DNA of 64,000 nucleotides from an uncultured bacterium (GTDB lineage: Bacteria > Patescibacteriota > Gracilibacteria > Absconditabacterales > Absconditicoccaceae): the NCBI GenBank assembly GCA_937862935.1, contig CALMEO010000055.1, positions 19,927 to 83,926 of the forward strand, written 5' to 3'. The notes beneath the pieces are model-generated. The model searched no databases. It had not been told where the DNA came from and saw nothing but the letters and a program-made list of their open reading frames with translations. Positions 8,776-55,957 of the stretch are shown here, one piece after another (position 1 is the first letter of the stretch; every line of letters begins with the position of its first letter). The position numbers were made by a program, and so were the translations under genes.

Positions 8776-8808
8776 AATGTGACTATTTATTGTAAAGACA
8801 GTCACATT
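8776..8808 (+). promoter_or_regulatory. hairpin enclosing the promoter box; 3' arm abuts the endonuclease ATG
   Basis: AATGTGACT (8776..8784) pairs with AGTCACATT (8800..8808), 9 bp; ATG at 8810. Confidence 0.5.
8783..8790 (+). promoter_or_regulatory. CTATTTAT box inside a hairpin loop
   Basis: 20 nt upstream of ATG 8810. Confidence 0.5.
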
Positions 8809-8809
8809 T

Positions 8810-9553
8810 ATGAAAAGTAATACACAAGCTTATTGGGACAGACTAAAAACTAAGTTGAAAGATTTAAACATCTTACCTTACGAGGATGTTTACAGTTTTC
8901 TAACATTGGATAATAATTACCTAAATTATTTAGGAAAAGCTAAGAATCGTACTCTTATTTCAGAAAATCTTGAAATGTATAAATCTATAATGTTTTATAC
9001 ACAACATCTAGAAGATTCTTTTAAACTGCAAAATTCTTATGCTGGTTTTTGGAATTTTTCACATAGGTTAAGGTTTATTGTAGAACATAATACTGAAATT
9101 ACTAGACTAAAATGTAAATGTGGAAAAAAATTAACTTGGACCACCTACTGTAGACATTGCCCAGATTATAAAAGAAACCAATTAGGAAAACCACATACAG
9201 AACTAACAAAAAGAAAGATGAGGTTATCTACACTAGATTACATAAAGACACTTAAAGGTCAAGTAGTACCCCGTTATAATAAAACAAGTATTACCGTTTT
9301 AGAAAACTATGCTAAGAAGCATAATTTAAGGTTAATGCATGCAGAGAATGGCGGCGAATTTTTCATTAAGGAACTTGGGTATTTTGTAGATGGGTACGAT
9401 CCTATAAACAATGTTGTTGTCGAATTTGATGAACGACATCATTTTACGTTAGACGGAAAACTAAAACAGCGAGATGTAGAAAGAGAGACGGAAATAAAAA
9501 AACTATTAAAATGCGAATTTATCAGAATAAGGTATGATCAAATACAAGAATAA
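8810..9553 (+). CDS. free-standing homing endonuclease-like gene (Zn finger plus Vsr/EDxHD-like PD-(D/E)XK core) between the intein halves
   Basis: CKCGKK...CRHCPDY and YFVDGYDPINNVVVEFDERHHF; sits between IntN and IntC. Confidence 0.6.
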   Translation: MKSNTQAYWDRLKTKLKDLNILPYEDVYSFLTLDNNYLNYLGKAKNRTLISENLEMYKSIMFYTQHLEDSFKLQNSYAGFWNFSHRLRFIVEHNTEITRLKCKCGKKLTWTTYCRHCPDYKRNQLGKPHTELTKRKMRLSTLDYIKTLKGQVVPRYNKTSITVLENYAKKHNLRLMHAENGGEFFIKELGYFVDGYDPINNVVVEFDERHHFTLDGKLKQRDVERETEIKKLLKCEFIRIRYDQIQE

Positions 9554-9857
9554 TCACACATTTCAAGTTCTAACACCCACGGGTTTTAAACCTTTTTCGG
9601 GGATTAGGCAAACTACTAAATCAAAAGTCGTAAATCTTACACTATCTGATGGCGTTACTGTAGTAGTATCACTAAAACACAAAGTTGTTGTCAATGGAAA
9701 AGAGATACTTGCTAAGGATTTAAAAGAAGGTGACCAAATTGGAAATTTTAACACTGTTGAAAAGATTGAAATATTGGAGAAACCAACATTACTATATGAC
9801 CTTGTTAATGTCGGTACAGACAATTTATATCTTACAGATTCTTTTACCTCGCATAAT
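9534..9857 (+). mobile_element. split intein C-fragment (IntC, 108 aa)
   Basis: Ends ...LLYDLVNVGTDNLYLTDSFTSHN followed by Cys+1 (intein blocks F/G). Confidence 0.75.
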
Positions 9858-10697
9858 TGTGATTTCCTATCTTCAGGGGATTCTGTTATTGAACCTGAGA
9901 TTCTTTCCTATTATGAGGAAACATTCCAAATTGATCCATTGGAAAAAAGAGGTGTTGATCACAATCTTTGGATATGGGAATATCCAGATTCACACAAATC
10001 TTACATGATAGTAGCCGACGTCTCTAGAGGAGATTCTACTGACTACTCCGCATTTCATATCTTTGATATTGAAACAGCAGCACAGATTGGAGAGTATAAA
10101 GGTAAACTTTCACCTAAAGATTTTGGTAATGTACTAGTAGCAATTGCTTCAGAATATAATGATGCACTACTGGTAGTGGAGAATGCTAACATTGGATGGG
10201 CAACCATCGAACAGATATTAGCTAGAGAATACAAAAATCTATATTACTCATCTAGGTCAGAAACAGAAACAGTTGAATCCTATATGGCTAAATACGAAAG
10301 GGATATGTTGGTACCGGGTTTTACAATGTCTCAACGTAGTAGACCATTGGTAATTGCAAAGTTGACAGAATATGTTAGAGAAAAATCTGTATTGATTAGA
10401 TCAAAGAGATTATTGTCAGAACTAAGGGTATTTGTTTGGAAGAATGGTAAAGCACAAGCACAAACAAATTATAATGACGACTTGGTAATGTCTTTTGCTA
10501 CAGGACTGTACGTAAGAGATACAGCAATAAGGTTAAGACAGCAGGGAATGGACTTAGCTAGAGCACAGTTATCTTCAATATCCTCTCTTAACCAACGAAA
10601 TCCTGTGGTGTATAATTCAACAACTTCTAACTACAATAATCCATATAAAATAGAAACCCCGTATGGACATGAAGACCTTACGTGGCTGTTAGAATAA
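9534..10697 (+). CDS. terL: C-intein fragment fused to terminase large subunit C-terminal nuclease part
   Basis: After SHN|CDFLSSGDSV come MIVADVSRGDSTDYSAF, VVENANIGW and NYNDDLVMSFA, acidic motifs like an RNase H-fold terminase nuclease. Confidence 0.85.
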   Translation: MIKYKNNHTFQVLTPTGFKPFSGIRQTTKSKVVNLTLSDGVTVVVSLKHKVVVNGKEILAKDLKEGDQIGNFNTVEKIEILEKPTLLYDLVNVGTDNLYLTDSFTSHNCDFLSSGDSVIEPEILSYYEETFQIDPLEKRGVDHNLWIWEYPDSHKSYMIVADVSRGDSTDYSAFHIFDIETAAQIGEYKGKLSPKDFGNVLVAIASEYNDALLVVENANIGWATIEQILAREYKNLYYSSRSETETVESYMAKYERDMLVPGFTMSQRSRPLVIAKLTEYVREKSVLIRSKRLLSELRVFVWKNGKAQAQTNYNDDLVMSFATGLYVRDTAIRLRQQGMDLARAQLSSISSLNQRNPVVYNSTTSNYNNPYKIETPYGHEDLTWLLE

Positions 10698-10703
10698 TGT
10701 AAA

Positions 10704-10711
10704 CTATTTAT
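10704..10711 (+). promoter_or_regulatory. CTATTTAT box
   Basis: 18 nt upstream of the portal ATG 10729. Confidence 0.5.
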
Positions 10712-10728
10712 TAAAAACAAATTTTAGA

Positions 10729-12585: not shown

Positions 12586-12588
12586 AGC

Positions 12589-12596: not shown

Positions 12597-12614
12597 AACA
12601 AAGAATATCATATT

Positions 12615-13690: not shown

Positions 13691-13698
13691 CACACATA

Positions 13699-16482: not shown

Positions 16483-16507
16483 AACTACATATTAGAAAAT
16501 ACATTAA

Positions 16508-16539
16508 AACCTTGCAAAAACTGCAGGGTTTTCTGTTTT
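16508..16539 (+). terminator. rho-independent terminator
   Basis: AACCTTGCA-AAAAC-TGCAGGGTT (9 bp) followed by TTCTGTTTT. Confidence 0.7.
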
Positions 16540-19287: not shown

Positions 19288-19314
19288 AAAGAGGACTTCG
19301 GTCCTCTTTTTTTA
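19288..19314 (+). terminator. rho-independent terminator after the major capsid gene
   Basis: AAAGAGGAC-TTCG-GTCCTCTTT followed by a T run. Confidence 0.85.
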
Positions 19315-27321: not shown

Positions 27322-27345
27322 GAAGGAGGGTTTCGACTCTCCTTC
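27322..27345 (+). terminator. UUCG-tetraloop hairpin (possible terminator or processing site)
   Basis: GAAGGAGGGT-TTCG-ACTCTCCTTC; no clean T run, followed by a CTATTTAT box. Confidence 0.4.
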
Positions 27346-29726: not shown

Positions 29727-29748
29727 AATATTTATAAAAAACACTAAG

Positions 29749-29772
29749 AAGCCTGATTTTCAGGCTTTTTTT
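29749..29772 (+). terminator. rho-independent terminator after the tail tube gene
   Basis: AAGCCTGA-TTT-TCAGGCTT followed by TTTTT. Confidence 0.85.
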
Positions 29773-30575: not shown

Positions 30576-30810
30576 TAGATTTTTACTTTTTAAAACACTT
30601 CACGAAATATGTTTCCACAGTCAAGGAGGGTATAGTTGGGAAACCGTATACAATATGCCAATTTGGTTACGAAAGTTAACTTTTAATTTATTGAAAGAAC
30701 ACTACGAAGAAAAACAACCAACAACTCATCAACAGGATTTTGAAGAACCTAAAACAGTTCAACGACCTGACTTTAGACCCACATATACAACGAAAGCTCC
30801 TAAGAAGTAG
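29832..30810 (+). CDS. putative +1 frameshift-extended tail assembly chaperone (long form)
   Basis: The +1 frame is open from the T7 run (30552..30558) to TAG 30808..30810, filling the whole gap up to the tape-measure promoter box. Confidence 0.35.
30552..30558 (+). other. T7 slippery run (candidate +1 frameshift site)
   Basis: ACC TTT TTT TGG, 15 nt before the zero-frame stop. Confidence 0.35.
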
Positions 30811-30819
30811 GGGCTTTCA

Positions 30820-46370: not shown

Positions 46371-46372
46371 CC

Positions 46373-46380
46373 CTATTTAT
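46373..46380 (+). promoter_or_regulatory. CTATTTAT box
   Basis: 34 nt upstream of the nrdB ATG 46414. Confidence 0.5.
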
Positions 46381-46413
46381 TTTTACATTGTCAAATCATA
46401 AAAAATAAGTTAC

Positions 46414-47397
46414 ATGAGTATTAAAGATGAACGAATAGTTTATAAACCCTTTGAGTACCCAGTTGCATATGACTACTGGTTAAAAGCACATCAAGCTCAC
46501 TGGTTACACACAGAAGTTCCAATGTCACAAGACGTATCAGATTGGAATTCAAATTTAAAAGATCACGAAAAAAACCTTATCGGAGGAATCTTAAAAGGAT
46601 TTGCACAAACAGAAACAGTTGTTAATGATTATTGGACATCACTTGTTACAAAGTGGTTTAGGAAACCGGAAATTATTATGATGGCTACTACTTTTGGAGC
46701 ATTTGAAACAATTCATGCTGAAGCTTATTCACTTCTGAATGAACAGTTAGGGTTGAATAATTTTGCAGAATTTTTAGAAGACGAATCAACAGCAGCTAAA
46801 ATTCAAGCTTTAATGGATGTTCGTGATGGAAATTCAGGAGAAACAAATTGGCACGAAGTGGCTAGATCGTTAGCTATCTTTTCAGCATTTACCGAAGGAG
46901 TAAATCTATTTTCTTCCTTTGCAGTACTACTTTCTTTTAAAATGAGAAACAAACTTAAAGGAGTAGGTCAAATCGTAGAATGGTCAGTAAGAGATGAATC
47001 ACTTCACTCCGATGCTGGTTGTTGGTTATTTAAACAGTTATTACAAGAACATCCAGAACTTAGAACAGAAAAACTTATCAAAGATATTGAAGAAGCTGCT
47101 AAAATGGCACTTCAATTGGAGTTTGATTTTATTGATAAAGTTTTTGAAATGGGAGATTTAGAAAATCTTACCAAGGATGAATTAAAGAATTTTATCAAAC
47201 ACAGGGTTAATACTAAGATGGGTGACCTAGGTTTAAAACCTATTATTCCTTCAGATCAAATTGATAAAGGAGCTTTGAAACAGATGTTATGGTTTGATAG
47301 TTTGACAGGAGGTAAGATGCATTCAGATTTCTTCGCAGTCAGAGTTACTTCGTACAGTAAAGGGCATATGGATTGGGATACAAATAACGTTTTCTAA
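46414..47397 (+). CDS. nrdB: ribonucleotide reductase class I beta subunit
   Basis: Diiron ligand motifs (ETIHAEAYS, VRDESLHS); C-terminal DWDTNNVF tail. Confidence 0.85.
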   Translation: MSIKDERIVYKPFEYPVAYDYWLKAHQAHWLHTEVPMSQDVSDWNSNLKDHEKNLIGGILKGFAQTETVVNDYWTSLVTKWFRKPEIIMMATTFGAFETIHAEAYSLLNEQLGLNNFAEFLEDESTAAKIQALMDVRDGNSGETNWHEVARSLAIFSAFTEGVNLFSSFAVLLSFKMRNKLKGVGQIVEWSVRDESLHSDAGCWLFKQLLQEHPELRTEKLIKDIEEAAKMALQLEFDFIDKVFEMGDLENLTKDELKNFIKHRVNTKMGDLGLKPIIPSDQIDKGALKQMLWFDSLTGGKMHSDFFAVRVTSYSKGHMDWDTNNVF

Positions 47398-47422
47398 TGT
47401 TGCTCGAATAGTAAAAAAATCT

Positions 47423-47451
47423 TTTTCTTGCCTATTTATTATAAAGAAGTA
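47423..47451 (+). promoter_or_regulatory. AU-rich hairpin enclosing the promoter box upstream of the HNH gene
   Basis: TTTTCTT (47423..47429) pairs with AAGAAGA (47445..47451), 7 bp including one G.U; ATG at 47454. Confidence 0.35.
47432..47439 (+). promoter_or_regulatory. CTATTTAT box inside a hairpin loop
   Basis: 15 nt upstream of the HNH ATG 47454. Confidence 0.5.
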
Positions 47452-47453
47452 TT

Positions 47454-48260
47454 ATGATAAACTGGCAAGAAATTTATAAAAAATTCCTACAGGAAAGAGA
47501 AACTACTAAATTAGTAGAAGTTACACATCGACATCACATTGTTCCAAGATACGAACAAGGAGGTAATGAGGAGGATAATTTGGTGAGACTATCCGTAAGA
47601 GATCATGCTACAGCACATTGGATACGGTATAAATGGCTTGGGAAGCTACAAGATAAAGTCGCATGGCTGATGCTATCAGGTAAGACAGTAGAAGGAGAAA
47701 GGCTTAGAGTACAGCTTGCATTTGAGAAGTATACTATTGAGGATAGAAGGTATATCATGAAAACTAGAAATCCAATGTGTATTTCTAAAAACATGGAAAA
47801 ATCCTTAGAAACTAAAAGACAGAGGTACGGGGGAAAATATCATTCTGAACGAGGGCTTGAAAATATGAGAACACTTAACAATACAGGAGGACAACACACA
47901 CCGGAAGCTATTGAGAAACGTAAACAATCACTAAAGCAAACCTTAGAAGGGTTAGGGAAAGAAGGAAGAAGGGAAAAATATGCAAGAGTAGGTGAATCAA
48001 ATGGTAATTTTGGAACAAAGAGACCAGGAGAGTTGGCAGGTAATTACGGTAAATCAAAAGGAACTTATACAATTACACACCCAGACAAAAGCCAAGAAGT
48101 GTTTGATAATCTAAAAGAAGCACTAAGAATTTACGATGAAGGAACTTTAAAAAGGAATAGAAACACAGAAACTCCAGTAAAAGGAGGAAAATTAAAAGGA
48201 TGTTTAATTATGTACGAAGAAAATACAAATTACGGAAACAACAAAAACCAAATTAAATGA
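47454..48260 (+). CDS. HNH homing endonuclease between nrdB and nrdA
   Basis: HRHHIVPRYEQGGNEEDNLVRLSVRDHATAHW; repeated GxxNxxxG modules. Confidence 0.8.
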   Translation: MINWQEIYKKFLQERETTKLVEVTHRHHIVPRYEQGGNEEDNLVRLSVRDHATAHWIRYKWLGKLQDKVAWLMLSGKTVEGERLRVQLAFEKYTIEDRRYIMKTRNPMCISKNMEKSLETKRQRYGGKYHSERGLENMRTLNNTGGQHTPEAIEKRKQSLKQTLEGLGKEGRREKYARVGESNGNFGTKRPGELAGNYGKSKGTYTITHPDKSQEVFDNLKEALRIYDEGTLKRNRNTETPVKGGKLKGCLIMYEENTNYGNNKNQIK

Positions 48261-49966
48261 ATATAGATTACAGTAAATGGGAGCCAGAGAAGGACTACCC
48301 ATCTTGGATGAATGAGGTTTCTTTGTCAACTATTTCAAAAGGGTATTTACTACCTGATGAAACGCCAAAGAAAGCTTATAAAAGAGTTGCTGATGCAGTA
48401 GCTAAAAGGTTAGATCGTCCAGATCTAGCTAACAAATTTTTTAAGTACATGTGGAAAGGATGGTTAAATTTAGCATCACCAGTTCTTTCAAATACAGGTA
48501 CAGATAGAGGTTTACCTATTTCATGCTTTGGAATAGATACACCAGATTCAATCAGAGGGATTGGATTAACAAACGCAGAGTTAATGAGATTAACTTCTCT
48601 AGGAGGTGGAGTAGGAATTGGATTAAACAGAGTTAGAGGAAGAGGTTCTAAAATCGGAAATGGAGAAACAGGACACTCTGAAGGTGTTATTCCATGGGCT
48701 AAGATTTACGATTCAACTATCATTGCTACAAATCAAGGAGCAGTTAGAAGAGGAGCAGCTTCAGTAAATCTTGATATCAATCACCTTGACATTAAAGAGT
48801 TTTTACGTATCAGAAGACCTCAAGGAGATCCAAACAGACAATGTTTAAACTTACACCAGTGTATTGCTGTTGATGATAAGTTTATGCAAAGATTAGAACA
48901 CAGAGATCCTGAAGCAATGGAACTATGGGTTGAAATTCTTAAGTCGAGAGTTGAAACAGGAGAACCTTACTTGATGTTTAAAGACAACGTTAATAATGCA
49001 AATCCACCTGCATATGTCAAAAATAACTTAGACGTTACAATGACAAATATCTGTTCAGAGATTGCATTACACACTGATGAAGAACATTCATTTGTATGTT
49101 GTTTATCTTCAGTAAACATTACAAAATACGAAGAGTGGAAAGATTCAGATTTAATTGAAACGGCTATTTACTTTTTAGATGGAGTATTAGAGGAGTTTTT
49201 AGTTAAAACCAATGGAAAAGATTCACTAATTAGAGCACACCGTTCTGCTAAGAAAGGAAGAGCATTAGGATTAGGTGTTTTAGGGTGGCATTCATTCCTA
49301 CAACAAAAAGGAATTCCATTCGTATCAATTGCTGCTACATCTTGGACAAACAAGATTTTCTCTCAGATAAAAGCACAAGCTGAAGCAGCTTCCAGAAAAT
49401 TAGCAGAAGAGTACGGTGAACCAGTTTGGTGTAAAGGAACAGGTATGAGAAATACACACCTTATTGCTATTGCACCTACAGTTTCGAACTCTACAATATC
49501 AGGAGGAGTTTCAGCAGGTATTGAACCGATACCAGCTAATGTGTATACGTTTAATTCTTCTAAAGGAACTTTCATTAGAAAGAATCCGGTATTAGAAAAA
49601 TATCTAGAAGATAAAGGACACAATACAGATGAAGTTTGGAAACAAATTTTACAAGATAAGGGTTCTATTGCAAATTTACCAGAAGATATAATGCCAGTAG
49701 AAGATAAGGAAGTTTTCTTAACATTTGCAGAAATCAACCAATTGGGATTAGTAGAACAAGCTTCAGTAAGACAGAAGTATATAGATCAAGCTCAATCACT
49801 AAATTTAGCATTCGACCCAGGTGATAGTCCTAAGTTTATTAACTTAGTTCATCAAACAGCTTGGAAATTAGGATTGAAAACACTTTATTACTTAAGAACC
49901 GATAGTGTCATTTCAGGGGATTTAGGGAGTAGAACTTCTGAAAATTGTTTGAGTTGTGATGGATAG
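48257..49966 (+). CDS. nrdA: ribonucleotide reductase class I alpha subunit (no ATP cone)
   Basis: LPISCFG, TNICSEIAL (active-site N-x-C-x-E), PTVSNS and C-terminal CLSCDG. Confidence 0.85.
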   Translation: MNIDYSKWEPEKDYPSWMNEVSLSTISKGYLLPDETPKKAYKRVADAVAKRLDRPDLANKFFKYMWKGWLNLASPVLSNTGTDRGLPISCFGIDTPDSIRGIGLTNAELMRLTSLGGGVGIGLNRVRGRGSKIGNGETGHSEGVIPWAKIYDSTIIATNQGAVRRGAASVNLDINHLDIKEFLRIRRPQGDPNRQCLNLHQCIAVDDKFMQRLEHRDPEAMELWVEILKSRVETGEPYLMFKDNVNNANPPAYVKNNLDVTMTNICSEIALHTDEEHSFVCCLSSVNITKYEEWKDSDLIETAIYFLDGVLEEFLVKTNGKDSLIRAHRSAKKGRALGLGVLGWHSFLQQKGIPFVSIAATSWTNKIFSQIKAQAEAASRKLAEEYGEPVWCKGTGMRNTHLIAIAPTVSNSTISGGVSAGIEPIPANVYTFNSSKGTFIRKNPVLEKYLEDKGHNTDEVWKQILQDKGSIANLPEDIMPVEDKEVFLTFAEINQLGLVEQASVRQKYIDQAQSLNLAFDPGDSPKFINLVHQTAWKLGLKTLYYLRTDSVISGDLGSRTSENCLSCDG

Positions 49967-49973
49967 TTAACCA

Positions 49974-50006
49974 ATTTCACCGCCTATTTATAATAAACGG
50001 TGAAAT
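49974..50006 (+). promoter_or_regulatory. hairpin enclosing the promoter box; 3' arm abuts the GIY-YIG ATG
   Basis: ATTTCACCG pairs with CGGTGAAAT, 9 bp; ATG at 50007. Confidence 0.5.
49984..49991 (+). promoter_or_regulatory. CTATTTAT box inside a hairpin loop
   Basis: 16 nt upstream of the GIY-YIG ATG 50007. Confidence 0.5.
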
Positions 50007-50696
50007 ATGGTAGTATATAAAATTACATGTGAGAAAGATGGTAGGTCGTATATTGGAGCTACAATTAACTCACATCATAGGAGATTAGAACATTTTAACC
50101 ATCTTAGAAAAAATAGACATCATAATATTTTTTTACAAAGAGCTTTTAATAAGTACGGAGAGGAGTCTTTTACTTATGAAATTTTAGAAAGGTTTAAAGA
50201 TCTGGAAAAAATGTGGAATAGAGAGGAGGAACTTGTAAATACGTTACCTAACCTGTATAATATGATGCCCGGAGGTATTAGAGGACCTCGAATGTACGGT
50301 AAAGATAATCCGAAATTTGGAAAACCAATTTCAGAGCAACAGAGAAGATTACAGAGTGAAGCTATGTCAGGGGAAAATCATCCTCAATTTGGAAAATCAT
50401 ACTATAATAACGGAGAACAACAGGTGGTACTTTCAAAACAAGAAGTAGAAAAGTACTTAAAACAAGGGTGGAAGAAAGGTAGGTTAGATACAAGAGGTCA
50501 AAATAATCCAATGCATACCCATAATATTGATTTTTCAGGAATCAATAATCCAAATGTAAAACATTATAAAGACTTTGAAAAAATTGAAGACTTAAGAAGT
50601 AAAAAGAAAACTTGGAATGAAATAGCCAAGGAGTTGGGTAAAAAAAGTCCTGAAGCTTTGCGAAAATCATATACAAACTTTAAAAAATTAAAATAG
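50007..50696 (+). CDS. GIY-YIG homing endonuclease
   Basis: VVYKITCEKDGRSYIG...RRLEH; four NUMOD3-like G.xNP.xGK repeats. Confidence 0.85.
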   Translation: MVVYKITCEKDGRSYIGATINSHHRRLEHFNHLRKNRHHNIFLQRAFNKYGEESFTYEILERFKDLEKMWNREEELVNTLPNLYNMMPGGIRGPRMYGKDNPKFGKPISEQQRRLQSEAMSGENHPQFGKSYYNNGEQQVVLSKQEVEKYLKQGWKKGRLDTRGQNNPMHTHNIDFSGINNPNVKHYKDFEKIEDLRSKKKTWNEIAKELGKKSPEALRKSYTNFKKLK

Positions 50697-51131
50697 ATGG
50701 GAGCAGTTATAACAATAAGTTTACTTATAATTGCTATATTGATATACATTATAAATGATCTTAAGGGAGAACTAAAGGATTTAAGTGATACTTTACTTGA
50801 ACAAGAAGATCAACACAAAGAAGATATAAAGAAAGCAAGACAAGATTCTAAATTTAGATCTTCTGCAGTAAATTGGGGCAAAGCAATTGAACACTTTGTC
50901 CCGTTTACGTCTAAATTTCCTATCCCACCTGAAGATGTTTCCTTTTTAGGAATGCCTGTAGATTTTGTAGGTTTTACAGAAACTGATGACCCTAAAAAAT
51001 GTAGTGTACACTTTATTGAAGTAAAAAGTGGAGGTTCTAATATTACGAAAAAACAGTACAATATTAGGGAAGCTATCAAAAATAACAGAGTACATTGGCA
51101 TACGATTAGGGTTGATGCAAATAACCTATAA
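50697..51131 (+). CDS. membrane-anchored PD-(D/E)XK nuclease-like protein (Holliday-junction-resolvase-related)
   Basis: N-terminal TM helix VITISLLIIAILIYII, then PVDFVGF...HFIEVKSGGS (D...E-x-K). Confidence 0.4.
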   Translation: MGAVITISLLIIAILIYIINDLKGELKDLSDTLLEQEDQHKEDIKKARQDSKFRSSAVNWGKAIEHFVPFTSKFPIPPEDVSFLGMPVDFVGFTETDDPKKCSVHFIEVKSGGSNITKKQYNIREAIKNNRVHWHTIRVDANNL

Positions 51132-51184
51132 AAAATTTTGTAAAATGAAAAAATTTTAATATCTTTATCAAAAATATAGAAACT

Positions 51185-51340
51185 ATGTCAAAAACATCTG
51201 CAAAAAGTAAATACGAGCAGTTAATGGAATGGATTCCAACTCTAGGAAGAGTAAAAGAGGAAAAAGCTAAGGAAACAACAAAGTTCAGCAAAGCTGATCA
51301 TTACAAACGTCAAGGAGCATATGGCAAAGCAAGTTATTAA
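51185..51340 (+). CDS. small hypothetical protein (51 aa), not in ORF track
   Basis: ATG-initiated ORF filling the gap; overlaps the thioredoxin start by 20 nt. Confidence 0.35.
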   Translation: MSKTSAKSKYEQLMEWIPTLGRVKEEKAKETTKFSKADHYKRQGAYGKASY

Positions 51341-51584
51341 GTTTTATGCTGATTGGTGCGGTCCTTGTAGAATGTATACACCAACCTTCGATAGAGTTAA
51401 GGAGGAACTTCAGAGTGATGAAATTTCATTCAAAGAAGTGAATGTTGAAAATGACCCTGAAAACTTAGCAGCAGAATACAAAGTTAGGGGAATTCCACTT
51501 ACAGTTGTTGTTGATAACGGTGAAGTAAGAACAGAATCAGGAAGGTTATCTGAAGAAATGTTAAAAAAATTGATTAACGGATAA
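51321..51584 (+). CDS. trx: thioredoxin
   Basis: WCGPC active site; 87 aa; next to the RNR genes. Confidence 0.85.
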   Translation: MAKQVIKFYADWCGPCRMYTPTFDRVKEELQSDEISFKEVNVENDPENLAAEYKVRGIPLTVVVDNGEVRTESGRLSEEMLKKLING

Positions 51585-51588
51585 AAAC

Positions 51589-51777
51589 ATGATAGAGGTT
51601 TTAAGACATACGTTTGGATTGTGTGGTGAAGGACATCCGCATTTACTAACCTTAACACCTTTGTTAGTTGGAATAGTGAGGTACTATCACTATATTTCAC
51701 ACAAAATAAAAACACTATGCAAGAAGATTTGGTATCGTTGTACGACTATTTGGGGTATGCAGCAGGAGGATCTTTAG
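51589..51777 (+). CDS. hypothetical small protein (uncertain)
   Basis: 62-aa ORF overlapping the next ORF by 61 nt. Confidence 0.25.
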   Translation: MIEVLRHTFGLCGEGHPHLLTLTPLLVGIVRYYHYISHKIKTLCKKIWYRCTTIWGMQQEDL

Positions 51778-51917
51778 GAAAAGAAGTAGCAGAAGCTGCT
51801 ATAAAAGCTAAAGAGACTATCGGAAAAAGAGAAGTAAATAATAAAAAATACACAGGTAGTGTAATGTTGTATCGTAGAGCTTTTTTAAAAGAGTTTTTTG
51901 ATGCAAAAAGAAAATAA
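51717..51917 (+). CDS. hypothetical small protein
   Basis: 66-aa ORF. Confidence 0.35.
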   Translation: MQEDLVSLYDYLGYAAGGSLGKEVAEAAIKAKETIGKREVNNKKYTGSVMLYRRAFLKEFFDAKRK

Positions 51918-51965
51918 CGTTTGCCTATACGTTTAAAAATACCTGGCTTATGTAAATCTTAAGTT

Positions 51966-52883
51966 ATGTTAGAATTTAACAAACCTAAATGCCACGTAAT
52001 TGTTAGTCTCAGTGGCGGGATGGACTCAAGTACATTGTTACTTAGATGTCTAAAAGAGTACGATAGTGTAACAGCTATCTCATTTGACTATGGTCAAAAA
52101 CATAGAGTAGAGCTAGAGAAAGCTCAATCATTGGTAGATTACTTAAATTCCACTTTAACCAAAGTAGAAGGACTATCTCAAGAACATCAAGATTTTTTTG
52201 AAGAAAATGGTATAGATGTCGATTCTCTTATAAAAAGTAAAAAACAGGAATACGGACCTATTAAATACCATCAAATTAGGTTAGATGGATTGGTAAACCT
52301 ACTTGATTCAACTTTAGTAACAGGAGGTAAGGATGTACCTGAAGGTCACTATGCTGAAGATAATCAAAAAGCAACTGTTGTACCTAACAGAAATAAGATT
52401 TTTTCATCTATTACTCAAGCGGTAGCTTTATCAATTGCAAATAGAACAGGAGAGACTTGTGATATTGCTTTAGGAATCCATAACGGAGATCACGAAATCT
52501 ATCCGGACTGTAGACAAGAATTTAGAGATGCAGATGATGCTGCCTTTAGAATCGGAAACTGGGATGCTGATAGAGTAGGATTCTTTACTCCGTATTTAGA
52601 AGGAGACAAATTTACTATCTTACAAGATGGAGAAGTATTGTGTACAGAGCTGGGATTAGACTTCAATGAAGTTTATAAAAGAACTAACACTTCTTATAAA
52701 CCATATCCTTCGGGAAATAGTGACTATAAGTCAGCTTCGAGTGTAGAAAGGGTTCTAGCTTTTATTAAATTAGGAGTAGCAGATCCGGTACAATATGAAG
52801 ACGAAACAGGACCAGTAGGGTGGGAAGTAGCAAAAGCTCATGCTATACAGATTGAAGAAGATTTCTTAAAAGAAAATAAATAG
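51966..52883 (+). CDS. queC: QueC-like PP-loop ATPase (7-cyano-7-deazaguanine synthase family), atypical
   Basis: VSLSGGMDSS (SGGxDS), FDYGQKHRVE, VVPNRN and IYPDCRQEF; the C-terminal Zn-Cys cluster is absent. Confidence 0.7.
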   Translation: MLEFNKPKCHVIVSLSGGMDSSTLLLRCLKEYDSVTAISFDYGQKHRVELEKAQSLVDYLNSTLTKVEGLSQEHQDFFEENGIDVDSLIKSKKQEYGPIKYHQIRLDGLVNLLDSTLVTGGKDVPEGHYAEDNQKATVVPNRNKIFSSITQAVALSIANRTGETCDIALGIHNGDHEIYPDCRQEFRDADDAAFRIGNWDADRVGFFTPYLEGDKFTILQDGEVLCTELGLDFNEVYKRTNTSYKPYPSGNSDYKSASSVERVLAFIKLGVADPVQYEDETGPVGWEVAKAHAIQIEEDFLKENK

Positions 52884-52901
52884 AGTAGTACCTAATGGAA
52901 T

Positions 52902-52936
52902 GGTAGTTCCGAACTATTTATAATAAAGGAACTGCC
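52902..52936 (+). promoter_or_regulatory. hairpin enclosing the promoter box; 3' arm abuts the GIY-YIG ATG
   Basis: GGTAGTTCC pairs with GGAACTGCC, 9 bp including one G.U; ATG at 52937. Confidence 0.5.
52914..52921 (+). promoter_or_regulatory. CTATTTAT box inside a hairpin loop
   Basis: 16 nt upstream of the GIY-YIG ATG 52937. Confidence 0.5.
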
Positions 52937-53623
52937 ATGCATTACGTATATATTACTACAAATCTTATTAACAAGAAATACTATATAGGAAAACATAAAG
53001 GAGAAGTTGATGATAGGTATCTTGGATCAGGAGTAGTTTTAAAGCAAGCTATAGAAAAATACGGAAAAGATAATTTTGAAAAAGAAATCTTAGTAATTTG
53101 TTCAACAGAGGAAGAAGCTAATCACTGGGAGAGAATCACTATACAGGAACATCTATCAGATCCAAACTGCTACAATATCGCCCCAGGAGGAGAGGGAGGT
53201 TATACAATTAAGCATTTTTCTGAAGAAGAAAAACAGAAAGTAAGGCAGAAAGCATCAAAAAGTTATAAACAGTACATAATATCTCACCCAGAGGAAGTAA
53301 AATCTCGGCAGGAGAGACAAAAAGTAACGTTACTTTCCAATATAGAAAATCATAGAAAAGCTGTTAAAGAAGGTCTACTGACGAGATCGGAAGAAGACAA
53401 GAAAGCACAGCATGAAAAGATAACACAGAAAAAATTAGATAACGGATACTACAGTGAATATCAGTTAATAGATCCGGAAGGAAATACGGTAATGCAAAGT
53501 ATTGGAGCAGAAAATATTGCAAAAAAATACGGAGCAACACCTAATGGGATACGATTAGCTGCTAAACACAGACAGCCTATTTCAAGAGGAGTATTAAAAG
53601 GGTATAAAGTAGTAAAAATTTAA
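52937..53623 (+). CDS. GIY-YIG homing endonuclease
   Basis: HYVYITTNLINKKYYIGKH...YLGSG. Confidence 0.85.
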   Translation: MHYVYITTNLINKKYYIGKHKGEVDDRYLGSGVVLKQAIEKYGKDNFEKEILVICSTEEEANHWERITIQEHLSDPNCYNIAPGGEGGYTIKHFSEEEKQKVRQKASKSYKQYIISHPEEVKSRQERQKVTLLSNIENHRKAVKEGLLTRSEEDKKAQHEKITQKKLDNGYYSEYQLIDPEGNTVMQSIGAENIAKKYGATPNGIRLAAKHRQPISRGVLKGYKVVKI

Positions 53624-53627
53624 AATC

Positions 53628-54035
53628 ATGAACGATAAGACAACAAATTATCTAGGGTACAGTCAAACCTTGGGTAACTTAGGGTTAACTTCAGGTAACA
53701 CAACCTTTACAACAAACAGTAACGGGATATCGGGTACATACGACCTAGACAATAACTGGTCAGTTCCACTAAACGTATGGAGTAACGGAACCAACTTAAC
53801 ATCAATTTCAACAATAGTAAATCCAAATAATATGAACGTAAGACAAGTTAAAGTAGCTGTGTTTACAGTAGAGAGAAATGAGGATAACAAAGTAACTTCT
53901 ACAAAGTTTATCAAAGAGCTTTGGGTAGAAGTTAAAAATGGATCTTCAGTAGAATTAGCAGTAGCTAAAGAATTGGATAAAGATTTTGACCCAAGTACTA
54001 CGGTAATTAAAGAAATCTTTTCAGTTATGTTCTAA
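53628..54035 (+). CDS. hypothetical Asn/Thr-rich protein
   Basis: 135-aa ORF. Confidence 0.5.
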   Translation: MNDKTTNYLGYSQTLGNLGLTSGNTTFTTNSNGISGTYDLDNNWSVPLNVWSNGTNLTSISTIVNPNNMNVRQVKVAVFTVERNEDNKVTSTKFIKELWVEVKNGSSVELAVAKELDKDFDPSTTVIKEIFSVMF

Positions 54036-54036
54036 C

Positions 54037-54297
54037 ATGAAACAATTTATAAAGAAACCAATTACGGTTGAAGCTACCCAATTAATAGATAACAACTTTA
54101 GAAGTTTAGACGATGTTCCACTTAGTATAGCTGGAAAATGAAAGGTAGGTAATGATGAGTATGGGTTTTATGTTGCTATACCTACATCAGAAGGTGATGT
54201 AAAAGCAAGAAACAACGACTGGATTATTAAATTACCAAGCGGAGAATTTTATACATGTAAACCTGATATTTTTAAAAAAAATTATCAAGAAGTTTGA
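54037..54297 (+). CDS. small phage protein interrupted by an in-frame TGA (pseudogene or readthrough)
   Basis: MKQFIKKPITVEA...SIAGK-TGA-KVGNDEYGFYV...GEFYTCKPDIFKKNYQEV; TGA at 54139..54141; no in-frame start in the second half. Confidence 0.4.
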
Positions 54298-54444
54298 GAA
54301 GAATAAAATAACCTGTACCCTCGAAATACTCATTAAGATAGTAGGTTAGCTCGAAATAAAAGGGTAATAGAATAAGAGCAAAATAGACTGTCAAGGTAGG
54401 ACGTCAGTTATAGAGAGGTGAGCCATACCTATTCCTCTCAAAAT

Positions 54445-54557
54445 AGTCAGGTGGCGGAAAGGTAAACGCTCACAGGTTGGTATTGTAAAAGAGGAATTGA
54501 CCTCCATCTCCATGTTTTAATGGTTATACCTTACAGGTTCAAATCCTGTCCTGACTA
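54445..54557 (+). tRNA. oversized tRNA-like gene (113 nt), anticodon unresolved
   Basis: Acceptor AGTCAGG/CCTGACT, D arm GCG-GAAAGGTAAA-CGC, T arm ACAGG-TTCAAAT-CCTGT, CAAA trailer; the middle holds a branched GGTAT...ATACC domain with two 6-nt-loop hairpins. Confidence 0.4.
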
Positions 54558-54561
54558 CAAA

Positions 54562-54647
54562 GATCATTTAGTGTAAGTAGCAATTCATGCTCATAGGTAA
54601 CACGGTGTCGTGAACACCAGATGAGAGTTCGAGTCCCTCAATGATCT
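54562..54647 (+). tRNA. aberrant tRNA-like gene (86 nt), anticodon unresolved
   Basis: Acceptor GATCATT/AATGATC, T arm GAGAG-TTCGAGT-CCCTC, CAAAAT trailer; GTGT...ACAC helix encloses a 25-nt loop; GGTGT-CGTGA-ACACC hairpin has a 5-nt loop. Confidence 0.35.
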
Positions 54648-54667
54648 CAAAATAAAATAAAGACTAG

Positions 54668-54696
54668 TTGGTAGTCTGAAAAATTATTCATATATT
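54668..54696 (+). promoter_or_regulatory. sigma70-like TTGGTA-N17-TATATT element (copy A)
   Basis: Exact 17-nt spacing; downstream of the aberrant tRNA pair. Confidence 0.4.
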
Positions 54697-54735
54697 AAAG
54701 TATGATTAAAAGATACATGAAATGGGTAACAGAGC

Positions 54736-54743
54736 CTATTTAT
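54736..54743 (+). promoter_or_regulatory. CTATTTAT box
   Basis: 18 nt upstream of ATG 54761. Confidence 0.45.
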
Positions 54744-54760
54744 ATATAGAACAATAAAAA

Positions 54761-54913
54761 ATGAAAGCAATTCAAAACATACAACAGTTTAAAAGCACAG
54801 CGCATAGAGCCATTCAAGTGGTATCGGATTCGTTATGTGGCGATTTTAGCTGGGATGTAATTCTTGAATCTTCATATAATAACGAACCTAAACTAGGAGG
54901 TACCGAGGTATGA
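54761..54913 (+). CDS. small hypothetical protein (50 aa), not in ORF track
   Basis: CTATTTAT box 18 nt upstream and a rho-independent terminator 30 nt downstream. Confidence 0.45.
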   Translation: MKAIQNIQQFKSTAHRAIQVVSDSLCGDFSWDVILESSYNNEPKLGGTEV

Positions 54914-54943
54914 TATAAGTTCTAAAACATAGACTTATTAAGT

Positions 54944-54976: not shown

Positions 54977-54985
54977 TGAAAAAAA

Positions 54986-55057
54986 AGTTGGTAGATTGAA
55001 ATATTATCACTATATTTAAAGTATAGAAATAAGGTCATTGACATATTGGATAAAATT
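54986..55057 (+). repeat. about 72-bp dispersed repeat, copy 1 (promoter-like)
   Basis: About 90 percent identical by eye to 61360..61432; contains TTGGTA-N17-TATATT and TTGACA. Confidence 0.8.
54988..55016 (+). promoter_or_regulatory. sigma70-like TTGGTA-N17-TATATT element (copy B)
   Basis: Follows a terminator; 44 nt upstream of tRNA-Ser; part of a 72-bp repeat. Confidence 0.45.
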
Positions 55058-55059
55058 AA

Positions 55060-55147
55060 GGAGAGTGAAGCAGCGCCATGGAGGTGCGACTAGTCTTGAA
55101 AACTAGGTCCCGTCTTTTCGGGTGGGGTTCGAGTCCTCCGCTCTCCG
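55060..55147 (+). tRNA. tRNA-Ser(UGA)
   Basis: Acceptor GGAGAGT/GCTCTCC, anticodon stem CTAGT/ACTAG, loop CT-TGA-AA, long variable arm CCCG..CGGG, T loop TTCGAGT. Confidence 0.85.
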
Positions 55148-55153
55148 CAATAT

Positions 55154-55225
55154 TGGGTTATAGTGTAATGGTTAGCACAAAACACTTTGGCTGTTTTAGT
55201 CTAGGTTCGAATCCTAGTAAGCCAA
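55154..55225 (+). tRNA. tRNA-Gln(UUG)
   Basis: Acceptor TGGGTTA/TAAGCCA (U1-A72, one G.G mismatch), stem AAACA/TGTTT, loop CT-TTG-GC, T arm CTAGG-TTCGAAT-CCTAG. Confidence 0.8.
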
Positions 55226-55240
55226 CCGAGTGCTGTTTTT

Positions 55241-55273
55241 GTATTTCCTTCCTATTTATTAGAAAGGAAGTAC
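55241..55273 (+). promoter_or_regulatory. hairpin enclosing the promoter box upstream of the GIY-YIG gene
   Basis: GTATTTCCTT pairs with AAGGAAGTAC, 10 bp including one G.U; ATG at 55277. Confidence 0.5.
55252..55259 (+). promoter_or_regulatory. CTATTTAT box inside a hairpin loop
   Basis: 18 nt upstream of the GIY-YIG ATG 55277. Confidence 0.5.
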
Positions 55274-55276
55274 ATC

Positions 55277-55957
55277 ATGGCAAAAAGAGTATACGGTACA
55301 AGAAAAAAATATCATTTTATTTATAAAACTACAAATTTACTAAGTGGAAGATACTATATAGGAATGCATTCAACAGATGACCTGAATGACGGATATTTAG
55401 GATCGGGTACATTATTAAGAAGATCTATAAAAAAGCACGGTAAAGAAAACTTTAAAATAGAGATCTTAGAATTTTTAGATTCAAGGGAAGCTTTAGTAGC
55501 AAGAGAAAAAGAGATCATATCTCTTCAAGAAATTGCTAAGAAAGAATGTATGAATTTAAAAGTAGGAGGAGAAGGAGGATTCTCCAGCGAAGAGCATAAA
55601 CAAAAATTCCTACAAGGACGAGAGTGGGGAAAGCTTTTAGGAGCTAAAACAGGAGGAGATCTTAGACGAGGAGTAGGTTTAGAAAGCACACACAGAGCTC
55701 TGATTAGTTTAAAAATGAAAGAACACTATACAACAAATATAGGACACTTCAGCAATAAAACACATTCAGAACAGACTAAGAAAAAAATGTCAAATGCTAA
55801 AAAAGGAAAAGGATTAGCACAGACTAATTCACAATACGGAACTTGTTGGATCACCGATGAGTATTCCAATAAAAAAATAATAAAAGGAGAAACAATCCCA
55901 GAAGGATGGAGATTAGGAAGAAAAATAAAAAAGCAATCCCTCTGCCACGGGTATTAG
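55277..55957 (+). CDS. GIY-YIG homing endonuclease
   Basis: YHFIYKTTNLLSGRYYIGMH...GYLGSG; C-terminal WITDE...PEGWRLGRKIK; last 10 nt overlap tRNA-Pro. Confidence 0.85.
   Translation: MAKRVYGTRKKYHFIYKTTNLLSGRYYIGMHSTDDLNDGYLGSGTLLRRSIKKHGKENFKIEILEFLDSREALVAREKEIISLQEIAKKECMNLKVGGEGGFSSEEHKQKFLQGREWGKLLGAKTGGDLRRGVGLESTHRALISLKMKEHYTTNIGHFSNKTHSEQTKKKMSNAKKGKGLAQTNSQYGTCWITDEYSNKKIIKGETIPEGWRLGRKIKKQSLCHGY

Follow-up and report, generated by a model that had tools for sequence, protein, structure and literature searches.

Late-promoter-type boxes within start-burying hairpins as a probable timing switch of phage homing-endonuclease cassettes

Our analysis suggests that at least eight homing-endonuclease cassettes of an uncultured phage probably carry a timing switch, in which a putative late-promoter box with a predicted start site just past it lies in a hairpin that buries the start codon and would block translation. 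The initial observation, made at five genes in a sequence-only reading, is real and stronger than first described: motif statistics, structures, the thermodynamic asymmetry between long and short transcripts, conservation with covariation and cassette boundaries are directly established, and all computable predictions of the promoter-in-hairpin model hold. Each cassette (Vsr-like, HNH or GIY-YIG) would have its own box inside a hairpin whose 3' arm takes in the start codon and a short leader. Transcripts entering from upstream (from the nrd operon, the terminase or the tRNA cluster) would hold both arms, fold and close the endonuclease start, and transcripts begun a few bases past the box would leave it open because the 5' arm is missing. 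Only use of the box, probably late, would then allow the endonuclease to be made, and the host genes up- and downstream of the cassette would keep their own expression.

The CTATTTAT box and its genomic setting

The window, by which we mean the whole stretch of 64,000 nucleotides analysed, is an uncultured phage contig, of Flavobacteriia, with a T4-type head/tail module (gp17, gp20, gp23, sheath and tube), a G+C content of 33.5% and all of its genes on the + strand, to which all coordinates below refer. CTATTTAT occurs 22 times in it, against 7.7 ± 2.7 expected, a count reached in 0 of 100 shuffles. Twenty of the 22 matches are on the +, i.e. the coding, strand, and 18 of these 20 have a start codon 12-33 nt further on, at head, tail and accessory genes; this is the spacing at the terminase, portal, adaptor and tube genes, the box of the sheath gene lying 78 nt before its start. 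Variants ATATTTAT are found 5' of further genes and CTATTCAT 5' of gene 56361. The extended consensus is [C/A]TATTTAT-W-N-W-W-A-A, with A kept 5-6 nt downstream of the box in 18/20 and 14/20 sites, and seven boxes have terminator-like hairpins no more than 45 nt before them. The same box stands 5' of orthologous genes in Flavobacterium phage immuto, where its density is twofold in the structural region, and of the 123 occurrences of CTATTTATAATAAA in IMG/VR, 57 have an ORF of 60 aa or more beginning no more than 36 nt downstream. Because the box is enriched, strand-specific, close to starts, found after terminator-like hairpins and recurrent in immuto, we take it for a putative promoter sequence, and its most likely identity is that of the -10-type element of a late promoter of the phage. 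Searches of the window and of the immuto annotation turned up neither a sigma factor nor a gp55-like protein.

Hairpins at the endonuclease cassettes

The energies given for each site are those of the enclosing hairpin only, and p values come from 500 shuffles of its flanks. The sequence-only reading placed the box in a hairpin loop at all five genes, with stems expected to exceed shuffled controls. Both statements stand at four of them (8810, 50007, 52937 and 55277), where stable hairpins of -12 to -18.5 kcal/mol enclose the box (p ≤ 0.006); at 47454 the box falls within the 5' arm instead, and the stem as first described (of the UUCUU / AAGAA type) is weak, at -1.6 kcal/mol with p 0.62. It is replaced by a hairpin at 47424..47472, whose 5' arm carries the box (47432..47439) and whose 3' arm carries the AUG, made of an outer stem (47424-47432 with 47464-47472, UUUCUUGCC / GGCAAGAAA) and an inner stem containing the AUG (47435-47444 with 47452-47461, UUUAUUAUAA / UUAUGAUAAA). 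Its 143-nt fold has a z score of -3.6, and a fold of such stability is reached by 0 of 200 shuffles. The gene itself (47454..48260, HNH-type) lies between nrdB and nrdA, overlapping the nrdA start by 4 nt.

The 8810 gene (8810..9553, 247 aa), a free-standing gene of the Vsr-like (PD-(D/E)xK) type, lies inside the split intein of the large terminase. The N-terminal half of the terminase (to 8681) and a 30-aa N-intein fragment (8682-8771, CLWGDT...LYKLL) occupy 7944..8774, and a 108-aa C-intein fragment (9534-9857, ending ...TSHN) and the C-terminal half, from the Cys at 9858, occupy 9534..10697, an ORF that the endonuclease gene overlaps by 20 nt. Its hairpin (8765..8818; -12.4 kcal/mol, p 0.002, z -4.05) has a 10-bp inner stem (8775-8784 with 8800-8809, GAAUGUGACU / AGUCACAUUU), with 0 nt between the end of the 3' arm and the AUG, and a 6-bp outer stem (8765-8770 with 8813-8818); the first two bases of the box (8783..8790) are in the 5' arm and the remainder in the loop. 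A second copy of the terminase/intein junction, TAAGAATGTGACTAT at 8772..8786 (original CAGGAATGTGATTGT, 8670-8684), adjoins this box and makes up most of the 5' arm.

The GIY-YIG / NUMOD3 gene inserted after nrdA (50007..50696) has its box (49984..49991) in the loop of a 13-pair hairpin (49970..50011; -14.7 kcal/mol, p 0.002, z -3.97), in which 49970-49982 pairs with 49998-50006 and 50008-50011, including the U and G of the AUG; a single C-G to U-A compensatory change occurs in L092. The GIY-YIG gene inserted after a QueC-like gene (52937..53623) has its box (52914..52921) in the loop of a hairpin at 52894..52943 (-18.5 kcal/mol, p 0.002, z -4.98), whose 11-bp main stem, with one G-U pair, takes in the A and U of the AUG (52900-52910 with 52928-52938, AUGGUAGUUCC / GGAACUGCCAU) and is joined by a 4-bp second stem (52894-52897 with 52940-52943). 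The third, of GIY-YIG / NUMOD3 type (55277..55957), lies directly 3' of tRNA-Gln and overlaps tRNA-Pro by 10 nt at its 3' end; its box (55252..55259) is in the loop of a hairpin at 55232..55281 (-15.2 kcal/mol, p 0.006, z -4.74) that matches the covariation model, with an outer helix pairing the AUG (55232-55236, GCUGU, with 55277-55281, AUGGC) and an 11-bp second helix (55240-55250 with 55264-55274). The earlier assignment of all five as endonuclease genes is borne out for these three by the Pfam GIY-YIG threshold and for 47454 by phrog_655 ('homing endonuclease', E 8e-17); the 8810 product is Vsr-like in family, with no match in Pfam or PHROG.

Three additional GIY-YIG genes, at 56361-57005, at 59619-60269 and, as a third paralogue cut by the window end, from 63956, follow the same design, with a 7-bp GUUAGCC / GGCUAAC stem that encloses the box and takes the G of the AUG, together with codons 2-3, into its pairing (-8.9 to -9.5 kcal/mol, p 0.004-0.012). 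Their hairpins lie at 56333..56369 (with inner pairs; CTATTCAT box at 56339-56346), 59593..59627 (z -4.67; box 59599-59606 itself base-paired) and 63927..63966 (box 63935-63942). Gene 62219 (62219-63769; DUF4874 / DUF4832 / T9SS sorting domain), an accessory gene absent from immuto and not an endonuclease gene, is preceded by an A-U-rich hairpin (62174..62214) that encloses a ATATTTAT box (62194-62201) and follows the logic of the same switch. Some inner stems are inflated by the A/T-richness of the box and by its partial self-complementarity with A/T runs close by.

The box could instead be an RNA signal, a site in polycistronic RNA for cleavage by an endoribonuclease of host or phage, where a cut in the loop would strip off the 5' arm and turn translation on, an equivalent outcome reached through processing. 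Its A/U-rich sequence, its single-stranded position in the loop at four sites, its location in intergenic spacers between co-oriented genes and the lack of a promoter-reading factor in the window and the immuto annotation would fit this. However, little RNA would get through to the seven boxes that follow terminator-like hairpins, the boxes at 47432, 59599 and 63935 are base-paired in a stem and would be poor substrates for a single-strand nuclease, and an exact 8-mer with conserved A-A 5-6 nt downstream and tight start-codon spacing typifies -10-type elements; the T4-type precedent on record is also a promoter (PMC2988022). We consider cleavage unlikely.

We hold it just as doubtful that the hairpins serve the host genes, by protecting the 3' end of the mRNA lying upstream, stopping ribosome run-in from the gene before, or shielding the operon against the insertion, with start occlusion as a side effect. 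They do begin 3-50 nt past the stop of the preceding gene or the end of a tRNA, and the tight packing of cassettes against downstream genes (gaps of -20 to +7 nt) is what selection for the least disturbance would be expected to give. A 3'-end protector, however, needs neither to cover the AUG nor to place a box, and the AUG or the immediately preceding nucleotides are consistently covered by the 3' arms, in various registers and with compensatory changes, with the box consistently placed where transcripts started from it would exclude the 5' arm.

Start-site opening, specificity and conservation

The promoter-in-hairpin model predicts that starts are closed in long transcripts and open in short ones. 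We computed the cost of opening the region -8..+6, taking short RNA to start 6 nt after the box. For the endonuclease genes this cost is 9.0-17.2 kcal/mol in long RNA versus 0.3-2.8 in short RNA (9.0 versus 0.3 at 47454), with means of 13.6 for read-through and 1.6 for box-started RNA, the latter the same as for other genes. Both claims of the earlier reading, that read-through RNA would fold over the start and that box-started RNA would be translatable, thus agree with computed costs. Among 72 gene starts, the endonuclease genes are eight of the 12 most occluded (p 2e-8).

Flank shuffles give significance at seven of eight endonuclease genes versus two of 17 other boxed genes (Mann-Whitney p 2e-4; 1.3e-3 with paralogues collapsed). 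Ordinary boxed genes had been said to have no enclosing stem, which is so for 15 of the 17, the exceptions being 62219 (p 0.012) and, weakly, 12615 (p 0.03). Since the non-endonuclease gene 62219 has the architecture, it is not exclusive to endonuclease genes; nor is it universal among them, as the HNH gene 60527, the nuclease-like gene 19382 and two endonuclease genes in an IMG/VR scan are without it. Leaders would be only 7-14 nt long if transcription began 6 nt after the box, a point that counts against the model.

The box is present in 56 of 106 distinct metagenomic GIY-YIG relatives, and an opening cost of at least 9 kcal/mol is found in 44 of these 56 versus 11 of 73 neighbouring ORFs. 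In a covariance-model alignment, which was fitted to the model's own structure, 92.3% of cells are paired versus 36-49% with partners slid, and 17 of 20 pairs change on both sides, a number matched by 0 of 500 shuffles. An unbiased scan turned up strong enclosing hairpins at phrog_655 homing endonucleases and nowhere else.

It is far less probable that the inverted repeats act as DNA (as an endonuclease binding or recognition site, a cruciform or a recombination boundary), with RNA folding irrelevant. The hairpins are located at cassette boundaries, and the junction copy forms the 5' arm at 8772-8786, as such a role would have it; yet the G-U pairs of the stems are A-C mismatches on the opposite strand, in eight of nine cases the sense RNA folds more stably than the antisense RNA, the covariance model scores 85.8 bits on the sense versus 40.5 on the antisense strand, and the arm sequences vary among endonuclease families without losing their placement with respect to the AUG. 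The hairpins are also without a U-tract, and none was called terminator-like. That A/T-rich intergenic DNA simply happens to fold around a motif that is in part palindromic, a reading to which the low G+C content of the window and the A-U-only inner stems at 62194 and 47432 might point, can be practically dismissed given shuffle p values of at most 0.012 at seven of eight sites, dinucleotide-shuffle z scores of -2.9 to -5.0, the strong contrast with other boxed genes and the covariation in relatives.

Known systems and a candidate operator

The proposed switch is the known design of T4 I-TevI, mobE and segB, here with a different promoter sequence. A late promoter combined with a hairpin is documented for I-TevI/II/III, segB and Aeh1 mobE (PMC2988022), so that the precedent invoked in the sequence-only reading is on record. 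As with the T4 I-Tev-type genes, the endonuclease ORF lies within a transcription unit that is used earlier, and the hairpin is stable on long transcripts only, whereas those from the gene's own promoter, a putative one here, would be without the 5' arm (PMC2988022). The I-Tev genes are intron-encoded, whereas those here are free-standing, with no group I intron identified; the box is TATAAATA there and CTATTTAT here; what the hairpin buries here is the AUG with an A-rich leader, and not a clear Shine-Dalgarno sequence; and the host belongs to the Flavobacteriia. Similar in setting are Aeromonas phage Aeh1 mobE, an HNH gene splitting nrdA, and T4 segB, a GIY-YIG gene in a tRNA cluster, both free-standing and with a late promoter and a hairpin over the initiation region (PMC2988022). 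Their counterparts here are 47454 and 50007, beside nrdA, and 55277, 56361, 59619 and 63956, among tRNAs, although the promoter consensus differs, nrdA is unsplit and the regulation is predicted. The T4 late genes soc, e, 49 and others, which are not endonuclease genes, are present on long early/middle transcripts and translated from late transcripts only (PMC2988022); gene 62219 fits this pattern but, unlike them, is an accessory gene whose product carries a T9SS sorting domain.

The 'fractured genes' of Dassa et al. (2009), metagenomic split inteins with a free-standing endonuclease, are described in the passages used here as having a hairpin before 15 of 16 endonuclease genes, ten of them with a late-promoter box (PMC2677866). 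According to those passages, they share with our terminase locus a gp17 broken at an unusual point and with a long C-intein (122 aa there; the fragments here are of 30 and 108 aa), a Vsr-like endonuclease family and an endonuclease 3' end overlapping the downstream ORF; their boxes are of the T4-type TATAAATA, and the text on the terminase locus mentions neither details of hairpin and box nor a conserved junction copy (PMC2677866).

The arrangement had been described as apparently evolved here with an unrelated motif. The motif does differ from the T4 type; independent origin was overstated, because the phage has a T4-type head/tail module and because box and hairpin are inside the segments inserted relative to immuto, and so travel with the endonuclease cassette. 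The design is more likely to have been carried and re-tuned by mobile genes than newly invented.

I-TevI is also autorepressed, through a homing-site-like operator that overlaps its late promoter. At the terminase intein, where the endonuclease is Vsr-like, unlike I-TevI, the probable homing-site sequence recurs beside the box as a copy of 10-15 nt, both here and in about half of the endonuclease's relatives, which makes the junction copy at 8772..8786 a candidate operator. Depending on lineage, the copy lies just 5' or just 3' of the box, and the relatives of this endonuclease retain a hairpin through differing pairing registers.

Predicted start-burying hairpins at the endonuclease genes

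Eight endonuclease genes of the window, with ATGs at 8810, 47454, 50007, 52937, 55277, 56361, 59619 and 63956, all lie at sites of strong computed folding around the start codon (z scores of -2.7 to -5.0). The sequence-only reading had placed the box, an 8-mer whose consensus starts [C/A]TATTTAT, in the loop of a hairpin ahead of the first five of these genes; shuffles and refolding bear this out at 8810, 50007, 52937 and 55277, and not at 47454. At the four former sites, stems of 10-13 bp with extra outer pairs surround the box loop (-12.4 to -18.5 kcal/mol) and exceed shuffled controls in stability, with p ≤0.006 for flank shuffles and z of -4.0 to -5.0 for dinucleotide shuffles; the 3' arm stops at the AUG or takes in part of it. 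The small stem originally meant at 47454 is not significant (-1.6 kcal/mol, p 0.62). This gene has a 19-pair hairpin over 47424-47472, in which the box lies in the 5' arm, paired with the AUG region, and whose outer stem (UUUCUUGCC / GGCAAGAAA) extends into codons 4-7. Beyond the five, the GIY-YIG paralogues at 56361, 59619 and 63956 in the tRNA cluster have a GUUAGCC / GGCUAAC stem around the box, whose pairing takes in the G of the AUG and codons 2-3. The structures point to RNA rather than DNA: G-U pairs are present in the stems, and in 8 of 9 cases the sense RNA folds more stably than the antisense. Only some 3' arms contain a purine run of the GGA type (AAAGGAAG at 55264, AAAGGAAC at 52925). 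Translation initiation in Bacteroidota occurs largely without Shine-Dalgarno pairing.

The flank-shuffle test, limited to 20 nt on the upstream side and 9-12 nt on the downstream side and with the box kept unpaired, missed the real 47454 hairpin; it was replaced by an opening-cost test on longer RNA, which recovers it. Opening cost is the free energy required to open positions -8 to +6 around the AUG, computed on RNA that extends from 80 nt upstream of the box through +40. In this long RNA, the eight endonuclease starts cost 9.0-17.2 kcal/mol to open (mean 13.6), compared to means of 4.7 kcal/mol for other boxed genes and 3.8 kcal/mol for all other genes, and they fill 8 of the 12 most occluded places among 72 gene starts (p 2e-8). 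When the RNA starts 6 nt after the box, the predicted cost falls to 0.3-2.8 kcal/mol at all eight sites, and the endonuclease genes do not differ from the other boxed genes (1.6 vs 2.0). The proposal that read-through RNA would be occluded and box-started RNA open thus agrees with the computed means of 13.6 and 1.6 kcal/mol, and the box is correctly positioned at 8/8 sites for transcripts beginning there to omit the 5' arm.

Ordinary genes had been described as having the box without an enclosing stem, which is true of 15 of the 17 other boxed genes and untrue of two. Significant enclosing hairpins are found at 7/8 endonuclease-linked boxes vs 2/17 others (Mann-Whitney p 2e-4, or 1.3e-3 with the three paralogues counted as one). 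The most occluded start in the window is that of gene 62219 (17.6 kcal/mol in the long RNA, 1.6 in the short), a non-endonuclease gene with DUF4874, DUF4832 and a T9SS C-terminal sorting domain. Its unit (62174-63769) has the full architecture, with a ATATTTAT box inside an 11-bp A-U hairpin, and the gene is not in Flavobacterium phage immuto, our comparison genome. The nuclease-like gene 19382 has a box and a start that is not occluded; this 467-aa ORF (19382-20785) lies between the major head protein gene and PhoH, with its ATATTTAT box after a terminator, and its product, also missing from immuto, matches phrog_3339 ('homing endonuclease') and PF18741 (REase_MTES_1575). The HNH gene 60527 has neither a box nor an occluded start. 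It is preceded by a small ORF at 60330, and in this region (60298-60530) a strong stem-loop, GCTCACTAGG...CCTAAAAGTGAGC, ends 3 nt before this ORF.

None of the endonuclease-linked hairpins between 46000 and 64000 was called as an intrinsic terminator, defined by a G+C-rich stem and a U tract, and a U tract is missing from all of them; the 3' arms, that of 8810 included, are followed by the AUG and coding sequence. On the + strand, terminators are not predicted from 46000 to 54943, so that transcription of the replication and nrd genes could plausibly continue into 47454, 50007 and 52937.

The box as a candidate late promoter

The window has a G+C content of 33.5%, every gene on the + strand and 21 tRNA genes at 55154-63909. 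Its sequence matches a 64.8-kb metagenome-assembled contig (JAMHZA010000790.1 of GCA_035909635.1), and the nearest records are immuto and Cellulophaga phages, with identities to immuto of 85% for nrdA DNA and 81% for the N-terminal half of the large terminase, TerL. PHROGs and Pfam identify a primase, exonuclease, SSB, UvsX-like recombinase, DnaB-like helicase, nrdB, nrdA and a QueC-like gene, together with a T4-type head and tail module (gp17-like terminase, portal, major head protein, sheath and tube).

The string CTATTTAT occurs 22 times in the window against 7.7 expected, with 20 of the 22 on the coding strand, and 18 boxes lie 12-33 nt upstream of a start codon. A is found at the positions 5 and 6 nt 3' of the box in 18/20 and 14/20 sites, respectively, and ATATTTAT variants occur ahead of additional genes. 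The terminase, portal, adaptor and tube genes have a box at the 12-33 nt spacing and the sheath gene has one 78 nt upstream; there is no box ahead of the SSB-recombinase-exonuclease-helicase block. Terminator-like hairpins (7882-7905, 16506-16532, 19290-19307, 27322-27345, 29748-29768, 30792-30818 and 33229-33243) stand ≤45 nt ahead of seven boxes, a terminator-then-promoter punctuation that spans the structural module. In immuto, an identical box precedes the TerL, gp20, sheath, tube and hub genes by 12-31 nt and box density in the structural region is twice that elsewhere, and in IMG/VR an ORF of at least 60 aa begins no more than 36 nt downstream of 57 of the 123 CTATTTATAATAAA occurrences. 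From the count, strand bias, gene context, terminator spacing and recurrence in immuto and IMG/VR, we infer that CTATTTAT is probably a phage late-promoter element, of the -10 type.

A search of intergenic DNA for host-type Bacteroidota promoters (TTTG ... TAnnTTTG) gave none, sigma-70-like sites are not enriched (59 vs 67.6 expected), and the coding-strand box is CTATTTAT rather than the T4-type late promoter TATAAATA. Neither gp55 nor another sigma factor turned up among the scanned ORFs of the window or in the immuto annotation inspected (150 of 160 kb). Literature searches on immuto promoters or the string CTATTTAT returned nothing relevant. At 7 of 20 box sites (e.g. 49984-49992 and 52914-52922) the sequence is CTATTTATA, the exact reverse complement of the T4 late promoter TATAAATAG; its orientation is therefore 'wrong' relative to the genes, and the resemblance may be a coincidence in A/T-rich DNA.

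Inserted cassettes, their relatives and the T4 precedent

The genes at 50007, 52937 and 55277 score above the Pfam threshold for GIY-YIG, 47454 matches phrog_655 (E 8e-17), and 56361 and 59619 give TIGR01453-like matches. The endonuclease genes all lack a match in the 150 kb of immuto covered. Over nrdB, nrdA and QueC the two sequences are collinear, and relative to immuto the window has insertions at 47379-48263, 49966-50818 and 52827-53799, each with a hairpin, a box and an endonuclease gene. Since hairpin and box lie inside the inserted segments, the putative switch moves together with its cassette. At their 3' ends the cassettes closely abut the following gene or tRNA (gaps of -20 to +7 nt).

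The QueC-like gene (51966-52883) has a counterpart in immuto, where the 7-deazaguanine DNA-modification pathway is complete (QueC/D/E/F, FolE and DpdA); for these two reasons the DNA of the window phage may be modified, which could affect endonuclease targets. In the tRNA cluster, GIY-YIG genes are wedged against tRNAs, both in the window (55154-57092) and in relatives (upstream regions L213-L371): tRNA-Gln ends 49 nt before the start of 55277, whose 3' end overlaps tRNA-Pro by 10 nt, and the end of 56361 is 7 nt from tRNA-Tyr. The relatives likewise follow tRNA genes, and a common GTAGAC/GGTCG-TTTTTGTAC motif makes up the 5' arm. A 113-nt tRNA called by Rfam at 54445-54557 (38.5 bits), and not reported by ARAGORN, could represent a tRNA interrupted by an insertion or intron or, alternatively, a tRNA-like element.

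Conservation was examined in the 55277 / 59619 family, for which IMG/VR supplied 106 distinct upstream regions. The [C/A]TATTTAT box is present within 50 nt in 56 of them, and opening costs of at least 9 kcal/mol are found in 44/56 boxed relatives vs 11/73 neighbouring ORFs (p 1e-9). Many of these relatives come after tRNA genes, as does T4 segB, and their stem sequences (e.g. GUACUUUGAUG, GUGUUUUUCUUU, GUUCCUUUUCUU and GUAUUUCCUU, each with its complement) vary from lineage to lineage. A MAFFT alignment of 23 upstream regions yielded no consensus in RNAalifold, because the arms stand in different registers, a problem overcome by a covariance model built from ten sequences and aligned to 61 hits. 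In this alignment, which is fitted to the model so that pairing figures lean towards the structure, 92.3% of cells are paired vs 36-49% with slid partners (94.5% in a separate count of + strand rows only), and 17 of 20 pairs show two-sided changes, a figure matched by 0/500 shuffles. Helix 1 of the model (GUCGU / AUGGC) takes the AUG itself into pairing.

Two relatives of 50007 (L091 and L092) keep the box and hairpin with one compensatory change from C-G to U-A, and relatives of 8810 retain a hairpin by pairing different upstream parts or form a long A-U hairpin whose 5' arm includes the box. An unbiased scan of IMG/VR found strong enclosing hairpins at just two distinct loci, both ahead of phrog_655 homing endonucleases of the 47454 family, which are recognised by PHROGs and not by Pfam; in the same scan, an enclosing hairpin was not found at two other endonuclease genes. 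More distant GIY-YIG relatives, which belong to other phages (L087-L090), have the same design around the classical T4 box TATAAATA; it occupies the loop of a GGAAAAUU...AGUUUUCC hairpin some 45 nt ahead of the ORF.

The T4 precedent named in the sequence-only reading is documented, both for the hairpin-switch logic of T4 I-TevI/II/III, segB, Aeh1 mobE and the T4 late genes soc and e (PMC2988022), with which the window switch shares its logic, and for fractured genes, where Dassa et al. 2009 (PMC2677866) describe hairpins, often with a late-promoter box, ahead of 15/16 endonuclease genes. The tRNA-cluster GIY-YIG genes of the window resemble the segB situation. The window differs from the T4 type in its box sequence, in having no gp55-type factor among the ORFs and immuto annotation searched, in hairpins that bury the AUG rather than a clear Shine-Dalgarno sequence, and in the host group. 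Every sequence-analysis test supported the original interpretation, its observation standing with the corrections described, and comparison supports reading the window cassettes as a probable promoter-in-hairpin switch of the T4 kind. As the mechanism is already known, the gain is one of breadth and not of principle. A private late promoter in a start-burying hairpin would not be restricted to enterobacterial T-even phages or to TATAAATA/gp55; around another box, this T4-type solution would serve three endonuclease families in phages of Flavobacteriia, a host group thought to start translation without Shine-Dalgarno pairing. The analysis also offers a candidate consensus for late promoters in a large group of uncultured myoviruses from marine and fresh waters, an annotation rule by which a box in a hairpin reaching the AUG flags a mobile or accessory insertion, and more than 50 natural variants of one RNA switch usable for testing.

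The fractured terminase locus

The large terminase locus at 7944-10697 is fractured into an N-terminal half with an N-intein, a free-standing, putative Vsr-like endonuclease gene (8810), and a C-intein with the C-terminal half. Alignment with the intact immuto TerL locates the split intein at ...AAQECD|C, with 7944-8774 aligning to residues 1-247 and 9858-10697 to residues 248-523, leaving zero residues missing. The first ORF ends in a 30-aa N-intein (CLWGDT...LYKLL) and the third begins with a 108-aa C-intein running to TSHN, followed by CDFLSSG. The junctions, ...AAQECD|CLWGDT... and ...TSHN|CDFLSSG, thus have Cys1, His-Asn and Cys+1, and Pfam gives Intein_splicing (E 5.6e-5) and PT-HINT (E 3.8e-4), both under the gathering score. 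The identical arrangement and junction recur in more than 40 IMG/VR relatives or contigs, and trans-splicing of the TerL halves would, we infer, restore the intact protein. A group I intron was considered as the setting of the 8810 gene and set aside: Rfam gives no hit, and the junctions have intein residues. The locus is a 'fractured gene' arrangement that matches the terminase locus of Dassa et al. 2009 (PMC2677866), who list gp17 with an unusually long C-intein.

The middle ORF, missing from the intact TerL of immuto, encodes 247 aa and has more than 160 homologues. Profile searches of its product against Pfam, PHROGs, NCBIfam and PDB sequences gave nothing useful; distant family members have NUMOD3 (PF07460), and one is named 'very-short-patch-repair endonuclease' by its source. 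The AlphaFold models are confident (pLDDT 88 and 87), and Foldseek matches the modelled C-terminal domain to 3r3p_B (I-Bth0305I; prob 0.87, TM 0.48), 1vsr (prob 0.60-0.66), AbaSI and Hjc, all with E of at least 0.14. This fold resemblance, weak in its E-values, suggests that the product may be Vsr-like, of the I-Bth0305I type. In the family, H, A, E, N ... D ... E-x-D-E-x-x-H are invariant.

A second copy of the junction sequence (8772-8786, cf. 8670-8684) abuts the box upstream of 8810. It is a tentative and rather doubtful possibility that this copy is an operator, through which the endonuclease would bind a sequence resembling its homing site and repress its own promoter, by analogy with I-TevI. 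If true, the operator would add a second, transcriptional layer over the hairpin switch, and autoregulation would then be described for the first time in the Vsr-like family and in an endonuclease housed within a split intein. At the TerL site of immuto, which has no intein, the surrounding sequence is CAAGAATGTGATTGTGAT. A junction-like copy of 10-15 nt, CAAGAATGTGA[TTGY], is retained beside the box in many diverged phages and is significant (p < 0.01) in 23 of 44 distinct relatives (from upstream regions L001-L061). It lies directly 5' of the box in one lineage and directly 3' in another, and the copies are more alike among themselves than each is to its own junction.
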